A DNA stretch of 64,000 nucleotides from Camelus ferus. Taxonomy: Eukaryota. The notes below the pieces were generated by a model that was given only the letters and a program-made list of their open reading frames with translations, made no database searches and was not told the origin of the DNA. The position numbers and the translations under genes are program-made. Shown here piece after piece: positions 3,201 through 21,095 of this stretch. The DNA lies in assembly GCF_009834535.1 (NCBI RefSeq), contig NC_045713.1:19282001-19346000 (forward strand), written 5' to 3'. Positions within the stretch are counted from its first letter, which is position 1. Each line of letters begins with the position of its first letter.

Positions 3201-6200
3201 GCTTGGCGCAGTCCTCGTTGCTCCGTCTCAGGCCCTCCTGCAGCTCATCCCGCTCCCGGCTGATGCTTTCCAGGTCCTTCTGCAGCTGCCGCCCCTGCCA
3301 CAGACCCCGGCCTCAGCCTCAGCCTCCAAGGGGAGGCCTCCCTCGTCACCAGGCCTCTCATGCCTGGCCTCCCGCACCTCGGTGGGCAATGTCGTCATCC
3401 GCTCAGTCGCTCAAGCCAAAAGCCCAGGAACTGATGCTGACTCTTCTCTCTTCCGCTGTTCCCCAGGTCCAACACACCAGCAAGCCCTGCCCCGTCAGCC
3501 TCCAAAGTGGATTTCAAACCCACTCACTCCTCTCCATCTCTGCTGCCAGCTCCCGGTCCACCTTCCTCTAAATGCTGTAGAGCATCTCTCTCCCAACCGG
3601 TCATCCTGCTTCCCTCGTTGCCCCCTCCTACGATGACAGTCCATTCCTACACAGAAGCCCATGTGATCTGTTAAAAGCCTAAAGCAGAGCAGGCCTCGCC
3701 CTGCCTTAAACTCCACCGAGGCTTCCCACAGTCCCCGAGGCCGACCTCCTACAGCCCCTGCCTGCCTTTCTGATCTCATCTCTCTTCTCCTTGGTGGCCT
3801 TGCTGCTCCCCAGATGCACCATGGTCTGTTCATCCTCTGGGCCCTGGAAATTCAGTTCCTTTGGTCCCCAATCTTCGAGGAACACCTCTTTTTTCACCAT
3901 CTAAGCCTTAGTCTCCTGCAGGGCCAGTCTCCACCCCGTGACCCTACTGAGTCTTGTTCTGGGCATTTCACCCTGTGACCCCATCTTCCTCATGTGCCCC
4001 TGTGCATGTCTGGCCCTGGTCCCCTCACTCGGAGGAAGCTCCAAAAGAGTGGGGGTTTTCATCTTCACTGTCGAAACCCCAGCTCTAGGTCAGGGCCTGG
4101 ACACACTGGGTTCTCAGTAAGTGCTTGGTGAGAGAGAGACGGATGCATGCAAGTCGGCAGGCTGCTCCCCACGCTCTACTCACCTCCATCTGCAGCTGCT
4201 CCCACTGGTTGTCTGGAACAAGCTGGTAACCAGGAGGGGGCAGGTAGATGCCCTCAGGGACCAGGGTGCCCGTGGACACCAGAGAGGCGGTCTCTTCCTG
4301 CTCAGGGCTCAGGCCCTGGCGGCTACGGGGCAGGGAGGCGCTGCTGCCAGCCCCGCCACCCAGGGAGAAGGAGGAGATGGAGGCGCTGTCGTCACAGTTG
4401 TGGGCGAAGGCCTCGGCTGCCGTGCCATCCCCACTCAGCTCCTCAAGAGGCTCCAGCGGAGGAGATGGGTCCCGGGACAGGAGCAACTCCGTGGAGCCAT
4501 GCAGGGAAGGGGGATGCTGGGGACGTCTCTACGGAGAGGGGACAGGGAAGAGGCTTGGGGGCCAGGGTCCTGTGGCATCCCTTCTTCCCGTGGTGCCCCC
4601 TGGCCGCCCCCTCACCTGGATCTCCTGGATCAGCTCCTCTGCCTTCAACAGTTTCGCCTTCAGCTCCTCAATCTCTTGCTCCATGGGCAGCACGATCTCC
4701 CGCAGCTTCTCTGAGTCCTCGTGGGCCTGAGGATGGGGGGATCGGGCCTTGACAGTCCCCACTCCTGACTGCAGGACCCTCAGAACTGCTCAGATCTTTC
4801 CCTCCAAGCATATCAGCTCGTCTAATCCTCCCAAGAAGACGCCATTCACGCCCATTTTAGAGAGAAGAACACAGAGGCTCTGAGAGCTCACATGGCTTGC
4901 CTAGGTCACACGGTAGGCAGCCAAAGTCACAACCACCTTCCTGTTGCCCACTTGTAGAGTGACATAGTTTTCTTCCCCAGCATCATTTGTCCTTTTCTCT
5001 TTTACCTTAGAGCCTCACATTTTTAGCTGGGCTCGTGGCCTAAATTCTAGAACATCAGCTACCTTTCTCAGCTTCCCTGTAAACTAAGCAAGGCCATATG
5101 ACTAAGTTCCAGCTAATGAGATGTAGGTTGATGTGCCAGGCACAACTCCTCAAACGGCGAGGGTGTGCTTTTCTTTACTCCTCCTCCTCTTGCTGGCTGA
5201 GTTGTAGACATGATGGCTGGCACTCAAGCAGTCATCCTGGACCACAAGGCAGTTAGATACCTATGGCAAAACAGCAACATAGGAGGAGCCTGGGTTCCTA
5301 CTGACTTGTTGAACTGCCACATCAGTCCTGAAATGTCTACCTCTGGACTCTAAGAAAAACAAACTTCTATCTTATTTAAGCTACTGTTGATTTGGCTTTT
5401 CAAACTTTGTCCTAACTGATATGTCCTCCCATATTTTCATCGCCACCATATTGCTGGCCACTTCTTTTCAGTCTCTTTTTCAGGTTTGGGAGCCTGCTGA
5501 ACTTGCAAAGCCAAAGTCCCTGGATAGCTCCACTTGGATGTTGCACAGGCTCCTCTATCCTAGTACAGCCAAATGTGACTCAACTCATGATGCCATTCCT
5601 CCTCTTACAGGCACTAGGTCAGCAAAAAAGACCCTGCTATTCACCCAGCTATCCAAGACAGAAATCTGCCAGTCACCCAACCTCTTCCAATTCATGCCAT
5701 TTCTACCTCTTGAATCTCTCAAAAACCTGTCTCAGACAAGCTCAGTTTAACCCTCCAAATCTCTTATGTGAACAGTGGCAATAGGTGGGATGAGCCCGTA
5801 TGGCCTAAACAAAACACCTGTGATCCCATCTGAAGCTCTAAAATACATGCTCTGCAGATGCCCACGTGATGGATGGGTGATGGCTAGATGCAGGCATTGG
5901 GCCAGGGCTGGAGCTGCTTGCCTCTGGGCCTGTGGCTCCTTCTGCTGTACCAGGCGGCTTTAATTTACCCTCTCCTTCACCACCCCCACGTAACTGCTCC
6001 CCGAGGATCACTCTAAATGCAAGCAGCAGCCTCTGGTATGAAACTGGGGCTTGGAAGCCTTCCCTTCTGGGGCTTCCTGTTTTGATCTTTGTCTTTCTAT
6101 CCATTGATTTATTCCATCTCCCTGAGCCTCAGTTTCCTCACATATAACATGAGGTGAGTACCTACCTCACAGGGCTGCTGTGCGGCTCAAATGAGGGAAT

Positions 6201-9200
6201 GATGTGAACTTGCTTTGAAACATGAAGACTCTGGTAATATGTGCTTACGATTGTTCATGACAATAAGAATAAAGGAGGAGATATACCATTGAGATTAAGA
6301 ACAAAACTTTAGAACCAGACCGCCTAGATTTTTAAATCCCAGATCTGCTCCTTTTTATGTGCACAACCTGGGGAGAACTACTAAGCTTCTCTGAGCCTCA
6401 CCTTACTCACCTGTTTAGTGAATCTAATGGATCTCTCTTTCAAGGGAAAGACGGGAGACTGAGTGTGTCAAGCAGTTTTCACAGTGCCTAGTGCATGAGA
6501 GGTATCCTTAAATGTTAGCTCCCCTCCTCCTACATGACTTTCCTCAATTGTGGAGGTAAGCAAACCTGGTCCAGGACCACGCTGAGTACGGGGCTAGGGT
6601 GTGCTATACTTAGAATGATCACTGGGTGCCCTGTTCCCAGTGATGTGGCGATGGGATACCGACAATCCCTCTGCCCCATGGTCACCTTTGGCTGCCTCAA
6701 CATCTTTCCAAATCCCAGGGTGGAGTGGGGAGGAGAGGAGAAGGGCAGGCCATCCCAACCCCAACCTTTTCCATCTGCTTCTCCAAGGAGTCTAGGGGGT
6801 GGGCCCGGGACAACAGCTGCTTCAGGCGCCCCAGCTCCCGCTCCTTCTCCTCACAGTCTTGCTGCTGCTGCTGCCGTTCCTGCTTCAGAGAACTGATCTG
6901 GGCTTCATAGCTGCTGATGGAGTCTGGCAGGGCAGGAAGGGCAGAGGAGAGGGAGGGTCAGTGCGCCGGCCCTACCTGGGGGTGAGTGGGGGTGCTCGCC
7001 ATCACTGCGGCTCTCTACCAGGCAATCCACCACAGTGGTGAAGACAGGGGGCTTTATGGCAGGTGGTCCTGGGCCATCAGTTAGCCTCTCTGCATAATGT
7101 CTTCAGCTAATGATTATCCCACTGGCTTGTTATATAGGATCAAATGACATGACATGTGGAAGGTGTTCAGCCCTCTTCCTGGTACATAATAAATGCTAAA
7201 GATAGGCTCTGTTTCTATTAATACATACCAATAACAATCAATATCTAATTACTAACTACTATATATAAAATAGATAAATAGCAAAGTCCTACTGTATAGC
7301 ACGGGGAGCTACTTTCAATACCCCTTGTAATAGCCTATAATGAAAAAGAATATGAAAAGAAATATATATATGTATAATTAAGTCACTATGCTGTACATCA
7401 GAAATTAACACAACATTGTAAACAAATTATACTTCAACTAAAATATATATATATATAATAATAGTCATAAATATTTACTCTGGGCCAGACTCTGAGCTGG
7501 GCTCTGGAAATAGAGAAATTGATCAAATACAAACCCTGACACCAGGTGCCCACAGTCCAATGAGGAAGACAGCCAGGGAAATAGTTACGAAGCAACAGGA
7601 GAAGAGCTGTGAGAGGACCTTTCCTAGGCTTGTGGATCCCAAAGGAAGGAGCCCCTAACTCTGCCTCCCTGACACTAGCAAGTGGTGAAGGAGGGAAAGG
7701 ACACATTAAGTAACAGGAGCAAAGTTTCAGAGGTGGGAAAGTGGATGGTGTGGCTGGGGCGCAGTGAGCGTGTTGGAAGATCTGGAGTGAAGGTGCACAG
7801 GGAGATGCTGGGAGAGGTGGAGAGGGTGGCAGTGCATGGCTGCCAAGGCTTTGAATGCCATGCCAAGGAGTTTGGAATTTATCTTACAGGTCAGCGGGAG
7901 GTGGAGGTGGTGGTGGGTGGAACATGGTCAGTTTTCATTTGCATAGTTATTAATTTTAGCATGTACTAACATTAAAAGTAAAGGTTCTGTTGCCAGAGTG
8001 CCTAGATTTAAATCTTCTGCTACTTTCTAGCTGTATCACCTTAGGTAAGTTATCTAACCTCTCTGGGCTTCAGAGCTTCCTCTGTAAAGTAGACAGAGAT
8101 AATAGTTCCTACTTAGAGAGATTGCTATGAAGATTAAGTACTCATAAAGCATCTAGCTCAATGCCTGGCATATAGTAAGTGCTTAATAAATGTTAGTTAC
8201 TAAAATTATTATTATTGTTATTTAGAATACTGTTTCTTGTAGGGACAGAAAATTTCCTTTAAAATAAAGGTATATACGTTTTATAAAAGTGGATTTATTC
8301 AAAGAACAAATATTAAGTAGACAACAGGGTAAGTCATAAAAGGAGACAACCATGTTGCACAGGTGGTACGTGGATGCCTGAAATGTGGGAAGTATGACCC
8401 CAGATAAGTCTGGAGCCAAGAGTGGTTGTTAGAAAGGGAAATGACATGGTGGGATGGGAACTGTAGGATGTCTACTCTGGAAGCCAATGTCAAGGTCAGA
8501 CTATAGAGGGAGCCTTGTAAGAAGGCTGGGGCAACAGTCCAGGGGACTTGACGAGAGCTTCGCTACAGCAGTGGCAGTGGAAGCGGAGGGGTGGGATGGG
8601 ACTGGAAGCTATTTCAGAGGCTCTGGCCTCTGACTAGAGGAGGAGGGAGAAATAGGAAAAGAAGCTGGGGGATCTGGGGCGAGGGGTGCTGATGCAGCCC
8701 AGTACAGAGGATGTGATGGAGGGAAATCTATGCATGTGGGTGGGGAGGGTGTGTGTCGATGTAGGGGTGCTGGGGAAGAAAGGAAACCAATTAGACTTAG
8801 AGACTAGGCCAAGGGCTGAGTATGCTGGCCAGAGGCTCAAATGAGCTCTCAAGGAACTGAGAAGTTGCTCACTTTCAGGGCTGATCAGTCATCAGTAAGG
8901 GACAAGAAGTGACAGGGGGCCAGGGAATGGGTAGAAGCTCCGAGCTAAACTTAGCTGGAATTGACAGAGCTGCTGCTAGCACAGGCAGCACCTCTATGTA
9001 AATCAGAAAAGGGCGCCTCTTCCTCTCAGCCCCTGGGCCTGCTCGGTGCCAGGCAACGCTGCTAACCTATCCCATAGCTTATCTGCCATGACCCCCTTCC
9101 TTGTTATGCACTCCCGCTTAGGGGGCCAAGGGAGCCTGGGAGGAGCGCTTGCCTCACCTTTCAGGATGGCCTGCAGGGAGGCCACCTCCTCTTGGCATTG

Positions 9201-10480: not shown

Positions 10481-12172
10481 TCCCCACCCCTACTTTGATA
10501 CTCAACCAGTCACCGATTCCTGCTAATACCCCCCGCCCCCGAGTGCCTCACAAATCCCTCCATTCCTCTCTCGGCCACTGGCTGCTCTAGGTCAAGCTCT
10601 CATTATCTGTGACCCCTCCCTCCAACAGCTGACCTGATACCTCCTCTTGAACGGTGACTGGCAACTCAAACTTAAGTCTAGAGCCTTGATTCGCCTTCTC
10701 CCAAACCCATTTCTCCCTCTGTAAAGCACACTCCAGGAGCCTGGAAGTCCTTGGTTCTTTCGTGTCCTCCTGTCGTGTGAGATTTACCTCCAAAGGACTG
10801 GATATTCCAGAATGGGTCCCTTTTTCTTCATCTCCAGCGCTGATACCCAACTGCAGTCCCCATCATCTCTCTCCTGAACTTCCACACTGACTCCTGCTCC
10901 CCTTTTGTCGCCTTTTAGCCCCTTTAGTTAATTCTCAAAGCAATTAGAGTGATCTTTGTAAAACATAGATCATGTCTCATCCTGTCTTAAAATCTTCTGA
11001 GTCAATCCTATTTGAAAATGTGCAAAGGACACGAATAGAGATTTCACTGATGTCATGGATGGCAAATATGTGCGTGAAAAATGATAGTCAACATTACTAG
11101 CCATCAGGGAAATGCAAATTTCCTATTTGCACACTACCAGGATAATTAAAATTTTAAAAGATTGGTAACACCAAATGCTGGTGAATAGATGGAGAAACAG
11201 TTTCTCATGTATTCCTGATGGGAATGTAAAATGGTATATCCACCGTGGGAAAAGGGCATCTCAATCTCTTACAAAACTAAACATGATCTTACTTGAACAC
11301 AGCAAGCTTTTCCCCACCCAGACCTTGGCTCAGAAGTCACCTCCTCAGTGAAGCCTTCCCTGACCACCCTGTGTAAGGTAGCTGCCTCTATCATCTGTCC
11401 ACCATTAGATCACATTAGAGACTTCTCACCATCTGAAATTGTGTATTGGTTAACTTATTTATTACCTGTCTCCCTGTAGCTTCCTGTGACCCCAAGACTT
11501 GAATCAGAGCTCCATGAGATTAGGAACCTTGTCTTTCCTGTCCCCTATTATTTTCCCAGCACCCAGTACAGTGCCCAGTAAATAAGCAGTAGTAAATAAA
11601 CATTTGATGAATGAGTGAATGAACACTTTCCTTGCTGATCTCTGGCCTCCCTCCAACCTCCTCACCGCCACACATCAGCTAGGGGGAGTTTTAGAAAATG
11701 CAAATCTAACCGGGTCAATTCCTGGCTTATAAATCCCCAAGAACTTCTTGCCCTCAGAATAAAGTCCAGACTCCCCATATATGTGGCAAGGTTTATTGGA
11801 AAGAGGGTGTAATGATGACTATAAATTAGGCTCCAGTCAACTATCAGGCTTGGATTTTATCCTGAGACCCCAGGAGTCTTCAAAGGCTATTGAGCAAGGG
11901 AAGCATTTGGCTAATTCCAAGGAAACTGTGTGTGGAATGTGGATGAGAAGTAAAAGAGATAGAGGACAGAGAGCCCACAAAAGAAGCTGCTGAGATGGTT
12001 ATGGTTGAGAAGGGAAGAGTCCAAAAAGAGAAGAAAATTCATTCTAGAAATATTGAGGGTAGAAAACAGACTAGCTTTGGTGACTGAGTGCATGGAGAAA
12101 AGAGAAAAGTTTTCTTTCACTCTTCCTAACTTCCTTCTTTTTTTTTTTTTTTTTTTTAATTGATGTATAGTT

Positions 12173-12722
12173 TGTGGAGCCGGCTGGCTGGCATTCTCTA
12201 AAGCTACTCTGAAGTCCATAAAACCCCCACTCCTGGGCTCTCCATGTGCCTGGGGCCCACTGGCACCCTTAACCCCCACCCCCTACTTCAGGACCCTCCA
12301 CATACCTGCATTTCTGCAAGACAAAAACATCTCCCTTGACGTGTGTTTACCCTAACAAAACTAACCACCCCCAGAAAATGGCCAGTCTCACAACACCCTA
12401 GGCAGACAGGCCTCAGGGCACATCTGCCCTTATGAGAGCCGTAAATCCCTTTCCTCAGAGTAGCCCCTGACAAGTCTTACAACCAATCAGGTAGCTGTGC
12501 ACAAACTTATCGTGCAGCCCCCCTGCCCCTTGTGTTCACAGTCCCTTCCCCCCAATAAAAGACCCTGCATCTTCACCCTCGGCGCTCACACCTCTCGTCT
12601 GTGTGTCCTGCTGTTGCCTAGAGCAGTGTATCTATTAAACTTTTCCTTTGTTTCTTAAACTGTCTTTTGTCTCTGGTAAATTCTTTTACTGCCCACGAAC
12701 CTGCCTGCTGTGTCCCCCAACA
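12173..12722 (+). repeat. ERV 5' LTR (550 bp)
   Basis: TGTGGAGCC...CCCCCAACA; CCAAT 12483-12487, TATA-like AATAAAA 12554-12560, ATTAAA poly(A) signal 12634-12639; direct repeat of 20500-21045. Confidence 0.95.
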
Positions 12723-12724
12723 TC

Positions 12725-12742
12725 TGATGGCCCGCATGGGGA
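12725..12742 (+). promoter_or_regulatory. Primer-binding site, tRNA-Ile(AAU)
   Basis: TGATGGCCCGCATGGGGA versus the complement of the tRNA-Ile(AAU) 3' end, TGGTGGCCCGTACGGGGA: 15/18 match, 2 nt after the LTR. Confidence 0.8.
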
Positions 12743-13199
12743 CTTTCTTTCTCCTCTCTCCCCTCCTTACGGGGGTCTCCCTCTGGCTTGATTGGAAGCT
12801 CCATTCTGGGAGGCCAGATCGCCAGAGCAGGCTTCCCTCTTCCCTTTCTGCTTTTCTTTCCTCTCTCACACTTTCCTTTCTGCTGCTCCCTGGCATTTGG
12901 GACTTGCCCTAAGTCTTGCCGAGAGAATTGAGGAACTTTGGCTGGGCGATTCTCAGCGGGCTCTAAAACTCGGTCTGACAGGCAGGACTGACCCCCTGGC
13001 CCTCAGCCGTGAATGCACACAGGAAATGTCTTTTCTAAATACCTCTGCTCCTTTACTCCTTGCTACTACATATCCCATGCCTGGGCCAAAGGGACTTTGT
13101 CTCTTGTCGGGGAAAGCACACATAAGAACTGGTCATCTGGTGCCTTGAGACACCCAGGACCCTGTCTCCTGGTCAGCCCCAGACACGTAATAGGGTAAG

Positions 13200-14745
13200 G
13201 CTGGTCGAGCGGAAAGTACTGGAAAGCCCTTCCCATGAGACCTACACTCTGACCCAATACAAACTTTCCTCTTCTTGCTCTCACCTGATTTTTAGGAAAC
13301 CCACCTTCTTTGATATCTAACAACCAACTTGATATCCTAGATGACCCCTTCCTTTCTCGGGTTCCTAACAACAACCAGGCTCCTTCTCTATGTCCTTCAT
13401 TGTCTCCTCCTCCAACCGGCCCAGCCCTGGGACTCCTCCAACACCTTCCTCTCCTTCCCCAGTCTCTCTCTCCCTGGGTCCAGTGACTGCTGAATGCCCT
13501 TCCCCATTCCCAGTTCCCCCTCCATATCAGACCCCCTTCCCCCACTACATACTAGATCAGGTATTTAAGACACGACAGAACCAACACCCCCAGTTAAGAT
13601 GAATATCTCAGAAGTCTCAAAACAAGATAGCACACTGACCCTTCGTGAGGTTGCTAATGGCGAGGCAGGTACCATTCAGGTCCATGTCCCTTTCCCAGCC
13701 AGGTTGGGCTCTTTTAGCCAGGACCCTTCTCGTTTTATACAAGAATTTCAAGCTCTCGCTATAGCCTTTGATTTGACCTGGCAGGATATATTTGTCATTT
13801 TCTCCACTTGTTGTACTCAGGAAGAAAAAGCTCGCATTTGCTCCTTGGCTCAGTGCTGGGCTGACGAGGTTCACACTCGAGCCATCCAAAATCCTGACAC
13901 TGAAGACACATCTAGGTCTGGAAAAGAATCAGTCCCTGACTCAGATCCCCACTGGACATATCAGGAAAGGGACCCCCTGGAAAACATATTGTAATCATAT
14001 GACTACTTGTTTATTAGAAAGAATGAAAAAGGCCATAATAACTCTATTAATTATACCAAACCGAGAGAGATTACTCAGACACCTGACAAAAATCCAGCCC
14101 TCTTCCACTCCAGGCTGGCGGAGGCCGTGTGAAAATACGCTAATCTTGATCCTGAAAGTGCAGAGGGCCTTGCAATACCAGAAGTTCATTTCATTAGTCA
14201 GGCCTCCCCAGACATTAGACAAAAACTTCAAAAGCTTGAACAGGGCCCACAAACTCCTTTTCCTGTCCTATTAGATATGGCCTTTAAGGTCTTTAACAAC
14301 AGGGAGGAGACATCAAAGGTTGAACAGGAGAGAAAAGAAAAAAAAAAGGACAAACGGCAAGATAAATATATGGCCGCCGTCACTGCTAGTGTCCTACCAG
14401 CACCACCTGAGCCGGGTAACGAGAGCCAGCATTTCCCAGAGGGAGCCTCCTCCGGGACAAGCCCCCATCTGTTTCCACTGCCAACAGCCTGCACGTCTGC
14501 GAGGAGACTCTAGAGCTCCTCGGGGGCCCTGCCCTGTCTGCAAGGAAAAGGGACACTGAAGGCAGGATGTCCCTCTCTCCCTCTTGCAGGAGGGCCATCC
14601 CAGAGCCAAGGACCTGTGCCAAGGATGACACCCCTGCCCCAGGGCACTCCTGGGGCTAAACCTGTAAGAAACCAACAGATGCCCCCAACTCTGTTCCTTG
14701 ATTATGAGGAGCCAGGTAACAACGAGGGGGAAGATGACTCTCTCT
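13200..14745 (+). pseudogene. gag: ERV gag (disrupted)
   Basis: CA motif VHVPF..LGSFSQDPSRFIQEFQALAIAFDLTWQD (~13680); MHR-region ITQTPDKNPALFHSRLAEAV*KY...HFISQASPDIRQKLQKLEQGPQTP...AFKVFNNREE; NC knuckle CPVCKEKGH* at 14530-14559. The 5' boundary is approximate. Confidence 0.88.
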
Positions 14746-14759
14746 TCTGGGACAGACAG

Positions 14760-17700
14760 AGCCCAGAGGCCATGCAGGCTCCCATGCTTTCCATCTCAAT
14801 GGCAGAGCCTTGGGAGACCTTGGATAGGCAGGAAAGTTCATTCAGTTTCTAGTTGACATTGGAGCCACTTACTCCACCTTAATTAGTTTTTCTGGACCAA
14901 CACTTCGGTCCTGGATCCTCCTTACCAGGATAGATGGCCATCCACAAACTGGCTGTTTCACCTCACTGTTAGTTTGTACTCTTGAAAAATTTACTTTTAC
15001 TCATGCCTTTCTTGTTCTCCCTGAATGACCCACCCCCTTATTAGGGAGAACTATTATGACTAAGCTTTAGGCCAGCCTCCACTTGCCAGAGTGTGTCTGT
15101 CCTTTGTTAGCCCTGGCTCAGGGCCCACAAGAGACACCTTTTGCTATTTACCAACAAGTGTCTCTGGAGGTCTGGGACATAACAACCCCAGGGAGGTCCC
15201 TTTTTGCAAAACCTGTACAAATTCAATGAAAAGATCCTACCTTTTTACCTTGAAAATCTCAATACCCTCCTAAGCCCAAGGCCTGGAGAGGCCTCCAGCC
15301 CTTAATCACCAAATTCCTTGCAACGGGACTGTTGCGTTCTTGTAACTCTCCATGCAACACCCCCATCCTAGCTGTGAAAAAGGCTGATGGGACATCCAGG
15401 ATGGTACAAGATATCAGGGCCATCAACTGAGGCTGTGATACCCATACATCCCATTGTGCCAAACCCTTTTATACTCCTAGGACAAATTCCTGCTGAGGCC
15501 TCTTGGTACTCCATGTTAGACCTTAAGGATGCTTTCTTCTGCATCTCTGTACACCCTGACTCTCAATTTCTTTTTGCTTTCTAATGGCAGGATTTAGAAA
15601 CCCAAGTATCCCAACAGTTAACTTGGACAGTTCTGCCCCAGGGATATAGAGACAGTCCCCATTTATTCGGATCTTTACCTCTAGCTAAAGAGCTCTCTAC
15701 CTTAGTTTTCTCTGGGCGGTGCCTCACTTCAGTATGTAGATGACCTCCTAATATATAGTCCTCATAAAGATTCTTCTGACTTAAACACTATAATGATATG
15801 ACAAAAACTAGCCTCATGTGGGTATAAAGTTTCTCTCTAAGGCCCAAATTTCAACTCAGAAGGTACAGTTCCTGGGCCTCATAGAAACCTAGGAATGAAG
15901 AGTTCGCCAGTCCAGAGAAAAAGTCTAATTTTAGACATGGGGACTCCAGCAACTAAACAATAACTCAGATCTTTCCTGGGAATGGCAAGAGTTCATAGGA
16001 CCTGGATACCCCAATTTGGCCTCATAGCAAAGCCGCTCTATGAAGCTTTATGGGGACCAGAAAATGAGCCATTAGAATGGACCCCTGAGATGGACCAAGC
16101 ATTGCAAATTCTCAAACAGGCTCTTACAGCGCCCCAGCTTTAGCTTTGCCTAATCTACAAAAGCCCTGTATCCTGTTTGTACATGTCACCCCGGGAGTTC
16201 TTAAACAAGCATTGGGACCCACCCAGCAGCCTGAAGCATACCTCTCTAAAAATTTGGACCCTGTGTCCCAGGGATGGCCCCCTTGCCTCAGAGCTCTAGA
16301 CTCTGTGGCCCTGTTAGTCGAAGAGGTATCCACATTGACTCTGGGACAACCATTAACTACCTATACAGCCCACCAAGTAATGGATATTCTAAATTCAAAG
16401 GCTTCTCACTGGGTCTCTGACGGTTAGATCACCAAATATCAAACACTACTCTTAGAGACTCCTGTACTTAGTATTAAACTGTGTCAAACTCTTAACCCCG
16501 CCTCTTTCCTTCCTAATCCGAATCATAACTCCTCTATAAAACACTCAGGCCTTGAGATACTAGATTTAACTTGTGCGGCTAGATCAGACTTTCAGGATAA
16601 ACCGCTCCAGGACCCTGACGACACCTGGTTTACTGATGGCAGTAGTTTTATATTAAATGGGGTTTGATTGTCTGGCTATGCCATTGTAAGTCTTACCAAA
16701 GGTATAGAATCAGGGCCCCTTCTGGGAGGCTCCACTTCTGCTTAAAAGGCTAAACTCATAGCTCTCACTCGGGCTTTACATTCGGGCCAGGAATGAAGTT
16801 AAATATTTACACTGATTCATCGTATGCCTTTCATGTTGTTCACGCACATGCCGCCATTTGGCAAGAAAGAGGTCTTCTCACAGCACAAAATGCACCCATT
16901 AGACATGCTTCAGAAATCTTAAACTTGTGAGAAGCCGTTATCTTCCCACAAAGGTGGCAGTGATTCACTGTCAAGCACATCAAAGGGTAACTGATGAGAT
17001 TTCCCAAGGAAATCACAAAGCAGACAGTCCAGAGAGGCAGCAGGACTTCCTATACAGGCAACTTTATTTCCAACTTTTACACTAATGGCTCCTCAATATA
17101 CTGAGAGAGAAATTCAAGAGGCAACAAAAGTGGGGTTTACCTTCACTCTTGAAGAAAAATGGCTTAAAAGCCCCAAGTGTATAATTATTACTCCCTAGGG
17201 CCTTATAATGGAAAATGTTACAAAATCTCCACCAATCTACCCACTTAGGGGCAAAGAACCTACAGGACTTAATACAACCTCTTTTTGTGGGAAAGGGAAT
17301 TTTTCAAACCCTATGCGACATCTCCCGCGCACGTCCAACTTGTCAGGTCAACAATGAAGGAAATGTTAGGCCACCCCACCTCTCCACCCAGTTCAGAGGA
17401 AAGGTACCCTTGGAGAGGTACCAGGAGAAGAATGGCAAATAGATTTCACTCATATGCCTCCATGTAAGACCCTAGAATATCTCCTGGTATTTTTTTTTAT
17501 GGGGGGAGGTACTTAGGTTTATTTATTTATTTAATGGAGGTACTAGGAATTGAACCCAGGACCTCATGCATGCTAGGCATTCACTCTACCAATAAGCTAT
17601 ACCCCCCACCTTCTCCTGGTATTTATAGAGACTTTCACAGGATGGATTGAAGCCTTCCCCACAAAAACAGAGAGGGCATCAGAAGTAACTACTGCTTTGC

Positions 17701-18435
17701 TGGATCGTATTACTCCCTGTTTTGACCTACCCTGCTCCTTCCAATCAGACAATCGCCCAAATTTTGTTTCTCAAATAACTCGAGGGGTGGCAGAAGCCCT
17801 ACAAATTGAACATCCCTTACCTGCCGCATGGCACTCCCAGTCCTCTGGTAAAGTGGAAAGAGCCAACCAAACAATAAAAAGAATCCTAACAAAGGTTATG
17901 CAAGAAACTCAGCAGTCCCGGCCCACTCTTCTCTGTACTGCTTTGTTACGAACACAAATTGCTCCAAAGGCTGAATCTCATTTAAGCCCTTTTGAGCTCC
18001 TTTATGGCAGGCCTTTCCTCCAAACAGATTTACTAACAGATGCTGAGGGTCACTACCTTGCTCGATACGTGACAACTTTAAGTCAAACTGTAAAGGCTCT
18101 TCATGAATATCACAATCATATAAATCCAAAGCCTGATCCCAATTTTCAGGGAAACTCCCATCCAAAAACTTGTTCCCAGGGACTGGGTTTATCTCAGAAC
18201 TCTTCCACAGGACAAGCAGGCATTTCAGCCAGTTTGGATGTGGCCTTAGCAGGTACTTCTGACCACTCCACCACAATGAAGTGAAACTAGACAGGCTCAC
18301 TCCTTGGATACACCTGTCCCGTGTAAAAGGTTGCCGCCCCGCCGCCGGCATTAAAAATGGGTGAGGCATCACCAACAAATACCTCGTCCAGCTGTGAGCC
18401 TCTGGAGGCTCTCTGCCTACTGTTCAAACGCAAAT
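14760..18435 (+). pseudogene. pol: ERV pro-pol (protease, RT, RNase H, integrase; disrupted, SINE inserted in integrase)
   Basis: FLVDIGATYS (14855); [10 protein letters not shown]; WTVLPQGYRDSP; QYVDDLL (YVDD 15733-15744); WFTDGSSF (16626); LHQSTHLG; WQIDFTHMP (17433); QSDN; SSGKVERANQT; C-terminal CEPLEALCLLFKR. Confidence 0.95.
17493..17611 (-). mobile_element. tRNA-derived SINE inserted into ERV integrase
   Basis: Antisense Vic-1-like SINE flanked by a perfect 13-bp TSD TCTCCTGGTATTT (17480-17492, 17612-17624); removing it rejoins ...EYLLV-FIETFTGWIEAFP. Confidence 0.93.
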
Positions 18436-18617
18436 CGGTGATGCTAGTCCCAATTCCTAGCTTAATGCATGCCACCTGCTGGGCTGATGCCAGCCAGCCC
18501 TGGACCTTGCCTTCTTACCCACATCTTCTTACCAGCGCTCTGCCTCACTATACTTCCTGTTTGCTGTTGTCCCAGCCGCGCTAATCCCTGCATTTCTCAC
18601 CCTTGCTCTAGCTGCCC

Positions 18618-18797
18618 ATGAGTTCCTCACTTGATGTCTTTTATGAAATTGTTCTTTCAGAATTAACTACAATCCCCGCCGAAGATCTTCTCTCTTTCTC
18701 TGCAACTCAATTCAGGGATTTCATTTTTGATCTATATCTTCAAGGCAGTTCAACCAATTTTACATCTGATGAGATTAATCTCTATTTAGAGTATTAA
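18618..18797 (+). CDS. Candidate 59-aa ERV accessory ORF between pol and env (hypothetical)
   Basis: ATG 18618 to TAA 18797, uninterrupted: MSSSLDVFYEIVLSELTTIPAEDLLSFSATQFRDFIFDLYLQGSSTNFTSDEINLYLEY. Just under the apparent 60-aa cutoff of the ORF track. Coding status unproven. Confidence 0.35.
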   Translation: MSSSLDVFYEIVLSELTTIPAEDLLSFSATQFRDFIFDLYLQGSSTNFTSDEINLYLEY

Positions 18798-18799
18798 AA

Positions 18800-20194
18800 A
18801 TGACACTCCTCTTTGTTCTGACTCTCCTCTTCACTTTACCTCTACTGTTACAGGAAACAGTTTCTTAGAATGGGCCTTCACATATGCTAGTACATTTAAC
18901 TACTCTAACTGCTGGGTTTGTGGCCGACCTGGTGTCTGCATTCTCTGGGTTGCCATGGTGGGTTTCACCCCTACAAGGATCTGATTGGAAAGAGTTTTCC
19001 ACACTTATTCGTCAATTGATATTTGCTATGAATGAAAACACAACTCGTCATGACACCTTAAACCCTCTGCCCTGTAAAGATTTTGAATTTCTATATGAAA
19101 TTTCTAACTATGATCCATCAAAATGGCCTATAGAAAACACCACTAATTTGCCAGGCCACAATTTTTCATTCTCTTGAACGGCCACAATTCAGGGAATGGA
19201 TAAGTTACCTAAAATGCCACACCAGAGAAGGTCTGGAGATGTTCAAAGTCCTCGTGAGTAGCAGAAGGCTTCAACCAACTAAGGGATGGAGCTAACTGGT
19301 TAATGCCCAAATATGGCAGATTGAGCATAAAAACTCCCCTGTGTTGGGAACAAAAAAATCATTCCTTGTCTCAGTGGCTAACTCCGCTCGACATCTGGGA
19401 TGCATTCTTTTAAAATAATGTGTTCATCGTATAATTTTATAGGCTACTGATTATCTGGCCACCAAATGGCAATTTAAACCGTGGCAATACAGACACACCA
19501 TATGGCCAGCCCCCAGTGGAACTCACTGGATCCGTGGCATTAACCTCTGGCCATGGTTGCCCCCAGGATGGATTGCTTGATGAACTTTGGGCTTCCCCTG
19601 GGCACAGGAACACAGATATTCCACCCTACAAAGTACAAAAATTGCAAATTTTCCTTTTATGCATGCCCGGTGGTCCCGATCTGTTTTTAAATGATATGAT
19701 CACCTAATACATTTTTATTTTTCCTCCAGTTGTCCTGGAAGATGTAATTCTGCATGTGGAAGCCTTAACAAAATCTATACAACAAGCACGAAATGATACC
19801 AGAGAAAGTATATTTTTGGTCAATACAGAAATGACCTTAATGAGGAGAACGATTTTGCAAAATCACATGGCTTTTGATATCCTCACAGCTTCCCAGGCGG
19901 GCACATGTACAATAATACTACTGAACGCTGCCCCCATCTCCCTGGTGTGTGGTAATGTCACTTCGCTCCTCACTCAACTACAGAGTGACATAAGTACTCT
20001 AGGGGATAGCAATGCTCACAGCAAAGAGGTTAACAAACAATTTTCTGACATGCTCTAATAGTTTTTTTTGGATTCCAGAGGGAATAAGGTCCTTTTTCAC
20101 AGGGATTTTAAAATTTCCCCTCTCCATCCTTTTCTTGAGATTGGCTATTTATCTTGTATGCATTTATTCTTTATGTTGTTTCCCTCTCTTATAA
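18800..20194 (+). pseudogene. env: ERV env (gamma-type, EnvP(b)/HERV-IP-like; disrupted)
   Basis: Signal peptide MTLLFVLTLLF from ATG 18800; NSFLEWA..NCWVCG (CXXC 18910-18921); LPWWVSPLQGSDW; NLWPWLPPGW; cleavage site RWSR/SVF (19668-19679); ISD LQNHMAFDILTASQAGTC (19855-19908); degenerate CX6CC; hydrophobic anchor ~20120-20190. Stops at 19578, 19581 and elsewhere, plus several frameshifts. Confidence 0.9.
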
Positions 20195-20499
20195 AAACAA
20201 TTGTCTCTCTCTTTGAGGTCCAAGCTCCAAAGAAACAAAAACAGACGTCTCTCGCAAGCAAGAGATGCCATGGCCCTTACCAACGGGATGCAGCCCTTGG
20301 ATGTCGAAGGGGGTTATTTTCAGGCTGCCCCTTAGGCAGTCAGATTTTGGGGAGGACCATCTTGGCCCCACACCCTGAACAGATTAGCACGATAGTTAGG
20401 GACAGCTTGACACTCATGTTCAGCAAGAAGTAGTTCCAGAAGAAAGAGACCTCCACCCATGTTCCAAAGATTTGTCACTGCCAATCTGTCAGGGGGAAA

Positions 20500-21045
20500 T
20501 GTGGAGCCGGCTGGCTGGCGTTCTCTAAAGCCACTCCAAAGTCCATAAAACCCCCACTCCTGGGCTCTCCATGTGCCTGGGGCCCACTGGCACCCTTAAC
20601 CCCCACCCCCCACTTCAGGACCCCCCACATACCTGCATTTCTGCAAGACAAAAACATCTCCCTTGACGTATGTTTGCCCTAACAAAACTAACCGCCCCCA
20701 GGAAATGGCCAATCTCACAACACCCTAGGCAGACAGGCCTCACGGCACATCTGCCCTTATAAGAGCCGTAAATCCCTTTCCTCAGAGTAGCCCCTGACAA
20801 GTCTTACAATCAATCAGGTAGCTGTGCACTAACTGATCATGCAGTGCCCCCCCCCTTGTGTTCACAGCCCCTTCCCCCTAATAAAAGACCCTGCACCTTC
20901 CCCCTCGGCGCTCACACCTCTCGTCTGTGTGGCCCACTGTTGCCTAGAGCAGCGTATCCATTAAACTCTCCTTTGTCTCTTAAACGTTCTATGTTTCTGG
21001 TAAATTCTTTTACTGCCCTTGCACTGCCCGCCATGTCCCCCAACA
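20500..21045 (+). repeat. ERV 3' LTR (546 bp)
   Basis: Direct repeat of the 5' LTR, preceded by the PPT; ATTAAA at 20960-20965; CCAAT box changed to TCAAT. Confidence 0.95.
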
Positions 21046-21095
21046 TAGTTGATTTACCATGTTGTATTAGTTTCAGGTATACGGCAAAGTGATTT

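Follow-up and report, generated by a model that had tools for sequence, protein, structure and literature searches.

We found that the gap between pol and env of a decayed class I (gamma-like) endogenous retrovirus in Camelus ferus holds two small open reading frames, and that both were probably viral protein-coding ORFs, the remnants of extinct accessory genes. The provirus (W) lies on the forward strand at 12173-21045 of the window, by which we mean the whole 64,000-nt stretch of DNA that was analysed (G000:C18). ORF-A (18465..18621, +) is predicted to encode a single-pass membrane protein with a hydrophobic helix, a CCC motif and a Pro/Cys-rich tail, and ORF-B (18618..18797, +) is a frame of 59 codons that is acidic, aromatic-rich and predicted to be helical. 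From the pol stop onward the order is 4 nt, ORF-A, an overlap, ORF-B, 2 nt and the env ATG at 18800, and the two ORFs tile 18465-18797.

W is bounded by a 5′ LTR (TG...CA; 12173..12722, +) and a 3′ LTR (20500..21045, +) preceded by a purine tract, and the target duplication TAGTT is present just before the former (12168-12172) and after the latter (21046-21050). The two LTRs have 41 mismatches in 547 aligned positions (7.5%), which at a neutral rate of about 2-2.6e-9 per site per year dates the insertion to roughly 15-20 million years ago. Downstream of the 5′ LTR there is a primer-binding-site-like sequence (12725..12742, +), with a similar sequence behind the LTR of a related copy (C2); we take it to resemble the tRNA-Ile type, unlike the Phe type of ERV-Fc. 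The coding regions are all broken: gag capsid pieces at 13569..14510 (+) match Pfam Gag_p30 (E 7.6e-5 and 7.9e-5), although neither match reaches the curated cut-off; pro-pol at 14828..18460 (+; Pfam rve, E 6.2e-9) is interrupted by stops, frameshifts and a SINE; and env (18800..20200, +, end approximate) has its own ATG with A at –3 and a hydrophobic signal-like start. The SINE-like dispersed host repeat in integrase (17519..17624, no strand assigned) has 7 copies in the window, and the other family copies lack it at this site. The combination of Gag_p30 and rve matches between paired LTRs with a target duplication places W, as far as sequence features can do so, among the gamma-like ERVs, and its base composition has a skew of C over G. 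The LTR family of W has at least 40 scored matches, from 514 candidates. The flanks are presumably a RABEP2 promoter region and CD19, with W in the same orientation as CD19.

A first-pass annotation of this DNA had ended integrase at about 18435. We found that the pol frame instead reaches a stop at 18458-18460, at the identical aligned place in all three family copies, so that the pol-env gap is truly 339 nt; W itself is frameshifted in pol immediately upstream of this stop. The 59-codon ORF that had been described, from ATG 18618 to TAA 18795-18797, was reproduced with its exact peptide, and the junction TAAAAATG, where its stop lies 2 nt before the env ATG, was confirmed. The annotation had also named a second, hydrophobic frame whose stop was said to overlap the start of the first. 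The peptide in that frame does end at TGA 18632-18634, but this TGA lies 14 nt inside ORF-B and not over its start; the stop that overlaps the ORF-B ATG is TGA 18619-18621 (ATGA), in a third frame missing from the annotation, which is that of ORF-A. The named frame (18527..18634, +) carries 19 stops in 8 copies and has an omega of 1.06-1.19 (p 0.43-0.80), which rules it out as a gene: it is a shadow of ORF-A, and the conserved hydrophobic ORF is the adjacent frame.

To the suggestion that the spacer might be an insertion unique to W, the answer is that three of four related loci carry it. The DNA search returned W, C23 (82%), C2 (72%) and C32, and all locus counts from the genome search are lower bounds. 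C32 has a deletion from ~18485 to 18930, across the spacer, and searches from the C2 side and by pattern led to the same three spacer carriers; a degenerate pattern of the last ten ORF-B codons found only these 3 known loci in the genome search. C2 is a separate insertion whose own LTRs are 95.9% alike. In C23 (L027) an LTR-like insertion of ~600 nt sits in integrase at about 6150-6750 and LINE-like sequence truncates env, and in C32 (L004) the deletion takes most of env along with the spacer.

The annotation had pointed to the intact state of ORF-B among disrupted gag, pol and env genes, with the reservation that 59 open codons can arise by chance. This openness carries no weight, as chance can account for it: when the spacer is shuffled with its dinucleotides kept, 250 of 2000 sequences contain an open 59-codon ATG frame, as do 24 of 145 same-size window tiles outside the provirus, and a frame of 59 codons survives LTR-implied decay with a simulated frequency of 0.47-0.83. 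The frame is open from 18612, and its ATG at 18618 is present in W only (1/3 family copies) and in 1/2 copies of a second lineage; C23 and C2 have ORF-B with frameshifts or a stop. The comparison between copies is what bears on coding. In the three DNA-found copies there is 1 stop in the ORF-B frame as compared to 10 and 24 in the other frames, and maximum-likelihood fits, tested against omega = 1, give values of 0.24 (F3X4, p 4e-5) or 0.33 (F1X4, p 1.3e-3). As controls from these copies, an integrase piece of 52 codons has an omega of 0.24 and six leader frames have values of 0.75-1.53, none of the six significant. Permutation gave p values of 0.002 for W-C2 and 0.003 for C23-C2, and the last ten codons of the three copies differ at third positions only. 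The signal is not significant for the pair W-C23 (p 0.24-0.31), nor in either frame for the second-lineage pair C11-C1 (p 0.47, 0.12), as expected if most of the difference within these pairs is post-insertion decay, though they add no support. The pattern of substitutions, whose signal comes mostly from the branch to C2, indicates that the ORF-B frame was under purifying selection in the viral past. The frame and dN/dS comparison across family copies that the annotation had proposed therefore comes out in favour of ORF-B (omega 0.24-0.33) and against the hydrophobic frame that it had named (1.06-1.19), and its core inference of one or two small accessory proteins stands, through selection on ORF-B and a family-wide spacer, once the hydrophobic ORF as named is removed.

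The selection signal is not evenly spread over ORF-B. The part after 18660 holds it (p 0.004 and 0.002), and the first 16 codons show none, although 16 codons have little power. An acceptor-like pyrimidine tract with CAG at 18660 (18640..18660, +) is found at this boundary in two of three copies, ORF-B has no common ATG, and the segment of ORF-B that resembles the frame before env in the second lineage (a similarity score reached by 1/5000 shuffles for C1 and 33/5000 for C11) also lies after 18660. These observations would fit a spliced regulatory gene (rev/rex/rec-like) whose second coding exon is ORF-B, entered at CAG 18660, with ORF-A as a separate gene. We consider this unlikely: C2 lacks the AG at 18660, 18612-18659 is stop-free in all three copies, no convincing common donor was seen by eye, the RNA-library contigs show no joints, and a protein with 1 basic and 10 acidic residues is unlike an RNA-binding regulator. 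By eye, a donor-like G/GTGAT at 18436-18445, before the pol stop, has a phase that joins the pol frame to ORF-B via 18660, and it is weak in C2. As for the acceptors at 18575 and 18715 proposed in the first-pass annotation, both AGs are present with upstream pyrimidine fractions of 0.80 and 0.75, and the one at 18575 is kept in all three family copies, but 18535, 18611, 18622 and 18744 score equally high.

Contigs from four sets of RNA libraries cover the spacer in a patchy way at a depth of about 2-5 and have no joints and no loose ends inside it; their depth is even over pol and env, they may be DNA, and such contigs cannot show transcription. A loose contig end at 18810 looks to us like library adapter. 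Low-depth contigs over an ORF that is open among broken neighbours could be read as co-option of the W copy of ORF-B by the host, which would keep it open today. This is highly improbable given the chance survival calculated above, contig cover that extends equally thinly over pol and env, and differences at 18645 and 18660 (one contig each, depth under 5) that would alter ORF-B residues. Selection acted in the viral past, and nothing indicates present host use of the W copy.

Both ORFs could also be by-products of a pyrimidine-rich, non-coding cis element, either acceptor tracts or an RNA structure. Pyrimidine-rich tracts give hydrophobic residues in any frame (the hydropathy of a wrong frame also reaches 2.4, within the range of ORF-A), and the spacer has several acceptor-like AGs. 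However, stops and omega are strongly asymmetric between frames, a search of the spacer against Rfam gave no match, and a consensus fold of the spacer has an unfavourable covariation term (+1.81), with a double change in 4 of 72 pairs, so we regard this explanation as very improbable.

In W, ORF-A is split by a frameshift near 18495-18500, and the membrane-helix part reads in 18496-18621 as SPGPCLLTHIFLPALCLTILPVCCCPSRANPCISHPCSSCP up to the stop. The frameshift is not an assembly error because RNA-library contigs of the same sequence cover 18344-18790 gap-free. The stop at 18619-18621 is at a common place in the three family copies, and the stop position is likewise common within the other lineages. 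C23 has an open ORF-A with no ATG at the aligned start, and C2 has an ORF-A with indels. A protein search with the natural frame of C23 gave 10 matches at E<=1, of which 8 lie directly at the 3′ end of pol; the other two (E 0.17, 0.60) are not retroviral and were dropped. A search with the C11 frame found 6 loci, all within these 8 carriers. The carriers are W, C23 and C2 together with C11, C9, C1, C27 and C14, eight proviruses in three pol lineages, and an ATG is present at the aligned ORF-A start in five of them. Over partial columns, the integrases of these lineages (W, C11-like, C9) are about 20-48% identical to one another; the integrase tree is built from loci of one genome and its between-lineage branching is poorly resolved. 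All copies come from this one genome, apart from P0001 (below).

Across a 33-codon core of the eight copies, fitted by maximum likelihood with stop codons masked, the ORF-A frame has 1 stop and an omega of 0.34-0.38 (p 2e-5 to 7e-5), the third frame has 12 stops and an omega of 1.99, and the antisense frame in register has 9 stops and an omega of 0.44. The eight-copy omega of ORF-A is biased low and partly circular because five of the copies were found by protein similarity in that frame. In the three DNA-found copies alone, omega is 0.57 (p 0.11) with 0, 2 and 10 stops in the three frames, and the pair W-C23 gives no significant signal (omega 0.95). The position of ORF-A at the pol end is independent of the peptide-search bias.

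In 7 of 7 frames examined for anatomy, the best 19-residue hydropathy of ORF-A is 2.1-3.2, and the charge is zero or negative before the helix and +1 to +3 after it; two of the seven have a sequon before the helix. By the positive-inside rule, positive charge after a helix predicts a cytoplasmic C-terminus, and a Cys cluster right behind a membrane helix is a usual palmitoylation site. Hydropathy and charge thus suggest a protein that probably had its N-terminus outside, its C-terminus in the cytoplasm and a palmitoylated Cys cluster.

ORF-A begins exactly at the usual env start, at or overlapping the end of pol as in the ERV-Fc arrangement described in the available parts of PMC4798954, and the envs downstream of it are of differing types. 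It could accordingly descend from an older env whose leader or signal segment stayed in place when new envs were captured, persisting as a free leader peptide or a scar. The C9 copy, in which ORF-A and SU share a frame interrupted by one stop, fits this idea as well. Yet the stop in C9 cannot be dated from a lone copy, and in seven of eight carriers a stop closes ORF-A and env begins separately, at an ATG and a hydrophobic stretch of its own. The charge pattern predicts a cytoplasmic C-terminus, opposite to what an ectodomain signal peptide would have, and a scar would not retain its length, its Cys cluster and an omega of 0.34 across lineages. We find an env leader distinctly unlikely, and an accessory membrane protein encoded by ORF-A remains the preferred reading.

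Four groups of env are found behind ORF-A, and we take the types at these loci to resemble PABL/EnvR(b), HERV-H/FRD and ERV3/HERV-E. The SU type of the W env recurs at three loci in which env directly abuts pol and no ORF-A is detected by the profile. C11 (L036, G000:C11:64732858-64732995, –) and C1 (L038, G000:C1:86602293-86602430, +) are sister proviruses. Their ORF-A is intact in C11 and has one stop in C1, and behind it lies an ORF-B-like frame, longer than ORF-B and with Cys residues, that is continuous in frame with a hydrophobic env start. Both have a frame change between this start and SU, with a GGTAAGT/GGTAAAT donor-like motif. C9 (L037, G000:C9:63319367-63319927, +) has a 105-codon ORF-A-like frame and no env ATG; its SU is presumably ERV3/HERV-E-like, its family is a single copy in the genome search, and a gag-like match between its RT-connection and integrase matches suggests a rearranged element. 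C27 (L039) and C14 (L041) are ERV-Fc-like and have the simplest two-gene layout, with an env ATG in strong context 7-8 nt past the ORF-A stop and no ORF-B.

The ancestral virus would have made a membrane protein from ORF-A and an acidic protein from ORF-B ahead of env, from env-type mRNA, with ORF-A occupying the usual env start place. We slightly favour translation of the ORFs by leaky scanning from env mRNA in the manner of vpu. In W, C23 and C2 there is no common ATG between the late-pol AGs at 18252 and 18407, each kept in seven of eight copies, and the start of ORF-A, so that no other common AUG would precede this start on an env-type mRNA. Position –3 is a pyrimidine at 7/7 ORF-A starts checked and A at 7/7 env ATGs, and 18 of 19 ATGs between the ORF-A start and env, one of the 19 being that of ORF-B, also have a pyrimidine at –3. 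Weak starts followed by a strong env start are the pattern expected for leaky scanning, although a pyrimidine at –3 is partly expected in a pyrimidine-rich region, so base composition may explain part of the pattern. The earlier proposal of termination-reinitiation with env fares worse, since the ATGA overlap is found in W only (one of three copies) and the start contexts suit leaky scanning better. ORF-B might have been started at a weak AUG or a near-cognate codon at the ORF-A stop, or reached by spliced entry at 18660. A –1 frameshift joining ORF-A to ORF-B was rejected, as the upstream stop of ORF-B and the stop of ORF-A leave only two codons for it and no slippery run is seen by eye.

What the proteins did can be suggested from position and anatomy only. 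By analogy with Vpu, which removes CD4 or tetherin and promotes release, ORF-A may have had a role at the membranes of the host, helping virus release or removing a host surface or restriction protein, which we put forward tentatively. ORF-B, with 10 D/E, 1 K/R and 10 aromatic residues among its 59 amino acids, has a structure model of four short helices (pLDDT 73, pTM 0.51), and it is conceivable, if doubtful, that it was a small adaptor binding a host protein via acidic-aromatic helices. Searches of sequence and structure libraries tied neither ORF to a function by a protein homologue, a family or a fold. For ORF-B, the model gave a best E of 1.7 against a viral fold library, with 0 of 18 matches at E<=0.001; its best match in VIA (Z 5.2, rmsd 2.6, 55 aligned) is uninformative for a helical 61-mer; no homologue was found among proteins of 32-104 aa; and the Atlas held no usable match. 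For ORF-A, alignment against proteins of 18-88 aa (351 candidates) and of 89-2000 aa (7995 scored) gave no homologue, and its best score in the Atlas was 0.81. A PDB sequence search reached a best E of 0.41, and Pfam scans of the ORFs gave weak matches only. An HMM search of 1.84 billion proteins with ORF-A had one match, P0001 (Logan contig, 972 nt; E 8e-5), in which the gene call covers an ORF-A-like helix and, continuous with it, the start of an env-like sequence of yet another type; it is the sole trace outside this genome, and we take its env-like start to resemble the suppressyn type. These blank searches do not show that the proteins are novel.

Taken together, these data suggest accessory genes that are known in kind by their position, whose sequences are likely new, as is their presence in a group said to have none. 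In a broader reading, a large H/F/W/Fc-like branch and at least one more lineage were complex, with a Vpu-positioned membrane gene tied to pol, env swapped behind it and a second accessory gene in some, and primate ERV-Fc2 and related human ERVs would have the same ORF, as yet unannotated, between pol and env; we regard this as a serious possibility that falls a little short of an even balance. If true, the boundary between simple and complex retroviruses moves, and the two proteins would each represent a new family for which no homologue is known and would point to ancient host targets. It predicts an ORF-A-like frame in those primate ERVs in which pol and env do not overlap. Because the copies are dead, the interest is evolutionary and not physiological.

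Among known systems, the ERV-Fc/HERV-H/HERV-W clade of gamma-like ERVs is the closest to W. In the portions available, Diehl et al. 2016 (PMC4798954) describe ERV-Fc as encoding no accessory genes, with an env that usually overlaps pol, and report a 5-bp target duplication for ERV-Fc and HERV-H; Halo et al. 2019 (PMC6407205), in the sections available, likewise describe ERV-Fc without accessory genes. W is like this clade in its Gag_p30 and rve domains, TG...CA LTRs, 5-bp duplication (TAGTT), C over G skew and exchange of env between lineages. It differs from ERV-Fc in having 339 nt with two ORFs between pol and env and in a PBS that is not Phe-type, on which ground W is ruled out as an ERV-Fc; the PBS-like sequence of C14, itself an ORF-A carrier, is what we take to be Phe-type, and the two PBSs differ. 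Jern et al. (PMC1224870), in the part of the text available, list accessory genes in delta, lenti, epsilon, spuma and HML2 and consider their absence hard to ascertain. A pol-env ORF in gamma-like ERVs is not named in the available portions of PMC8922424, PMC9604959, PMC5388530 and 10.1101/2021.11.23.469661, and the full-text literature searched, a scope outside which subscription journals and Repbase/Dfam notes fall, contains no report of one. The pre-gag ORF of HERV-T (PMC5388530, as far as the available text describes it) is likewise an extra ORF in a gamma-like ERV, and it is found upstream of gag rather than in a pol-env gap.

Like Rev/Rex/Rec-type regulators, as described in the available part of PMC1224870, W has extra coding capacity beside the env start. 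In contrast to these regulators, ORF-B has no arginine-rich motif and is acidic, as its composition above shows, although an unseen upstream exon is possible. Proteins derived from the env leader are known in beta-, delta- and lentiviruses; they differ from ORF-A, which a stop closes off from env in seven of eight copies. The closest parallel in layout is with HIV-1, where vpu and env are translated by leaky scanning on a bicistronic mRNA, according to the available text of PMC4640844. Identity of ORF-A with Vpu itself was rejected, as there is no sequence match and the Vpu family is absent among the Pfam matches of 7 ORF-A frames, that of C23 included. Vpu belongs to another retroviral class and has cytoplasmic helices with a phosphoserine motif where ORF-A has a short Cys/Pro-rich tail. 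The two are nevertheless placed and built alike: ORF-A, too, is small, lies before env (with ORF-B intervening in five of eight copies), has a single hydrophobic helix near its N-terminus, as predicted by hydropathy only, and places a weak start before the strong start of env.
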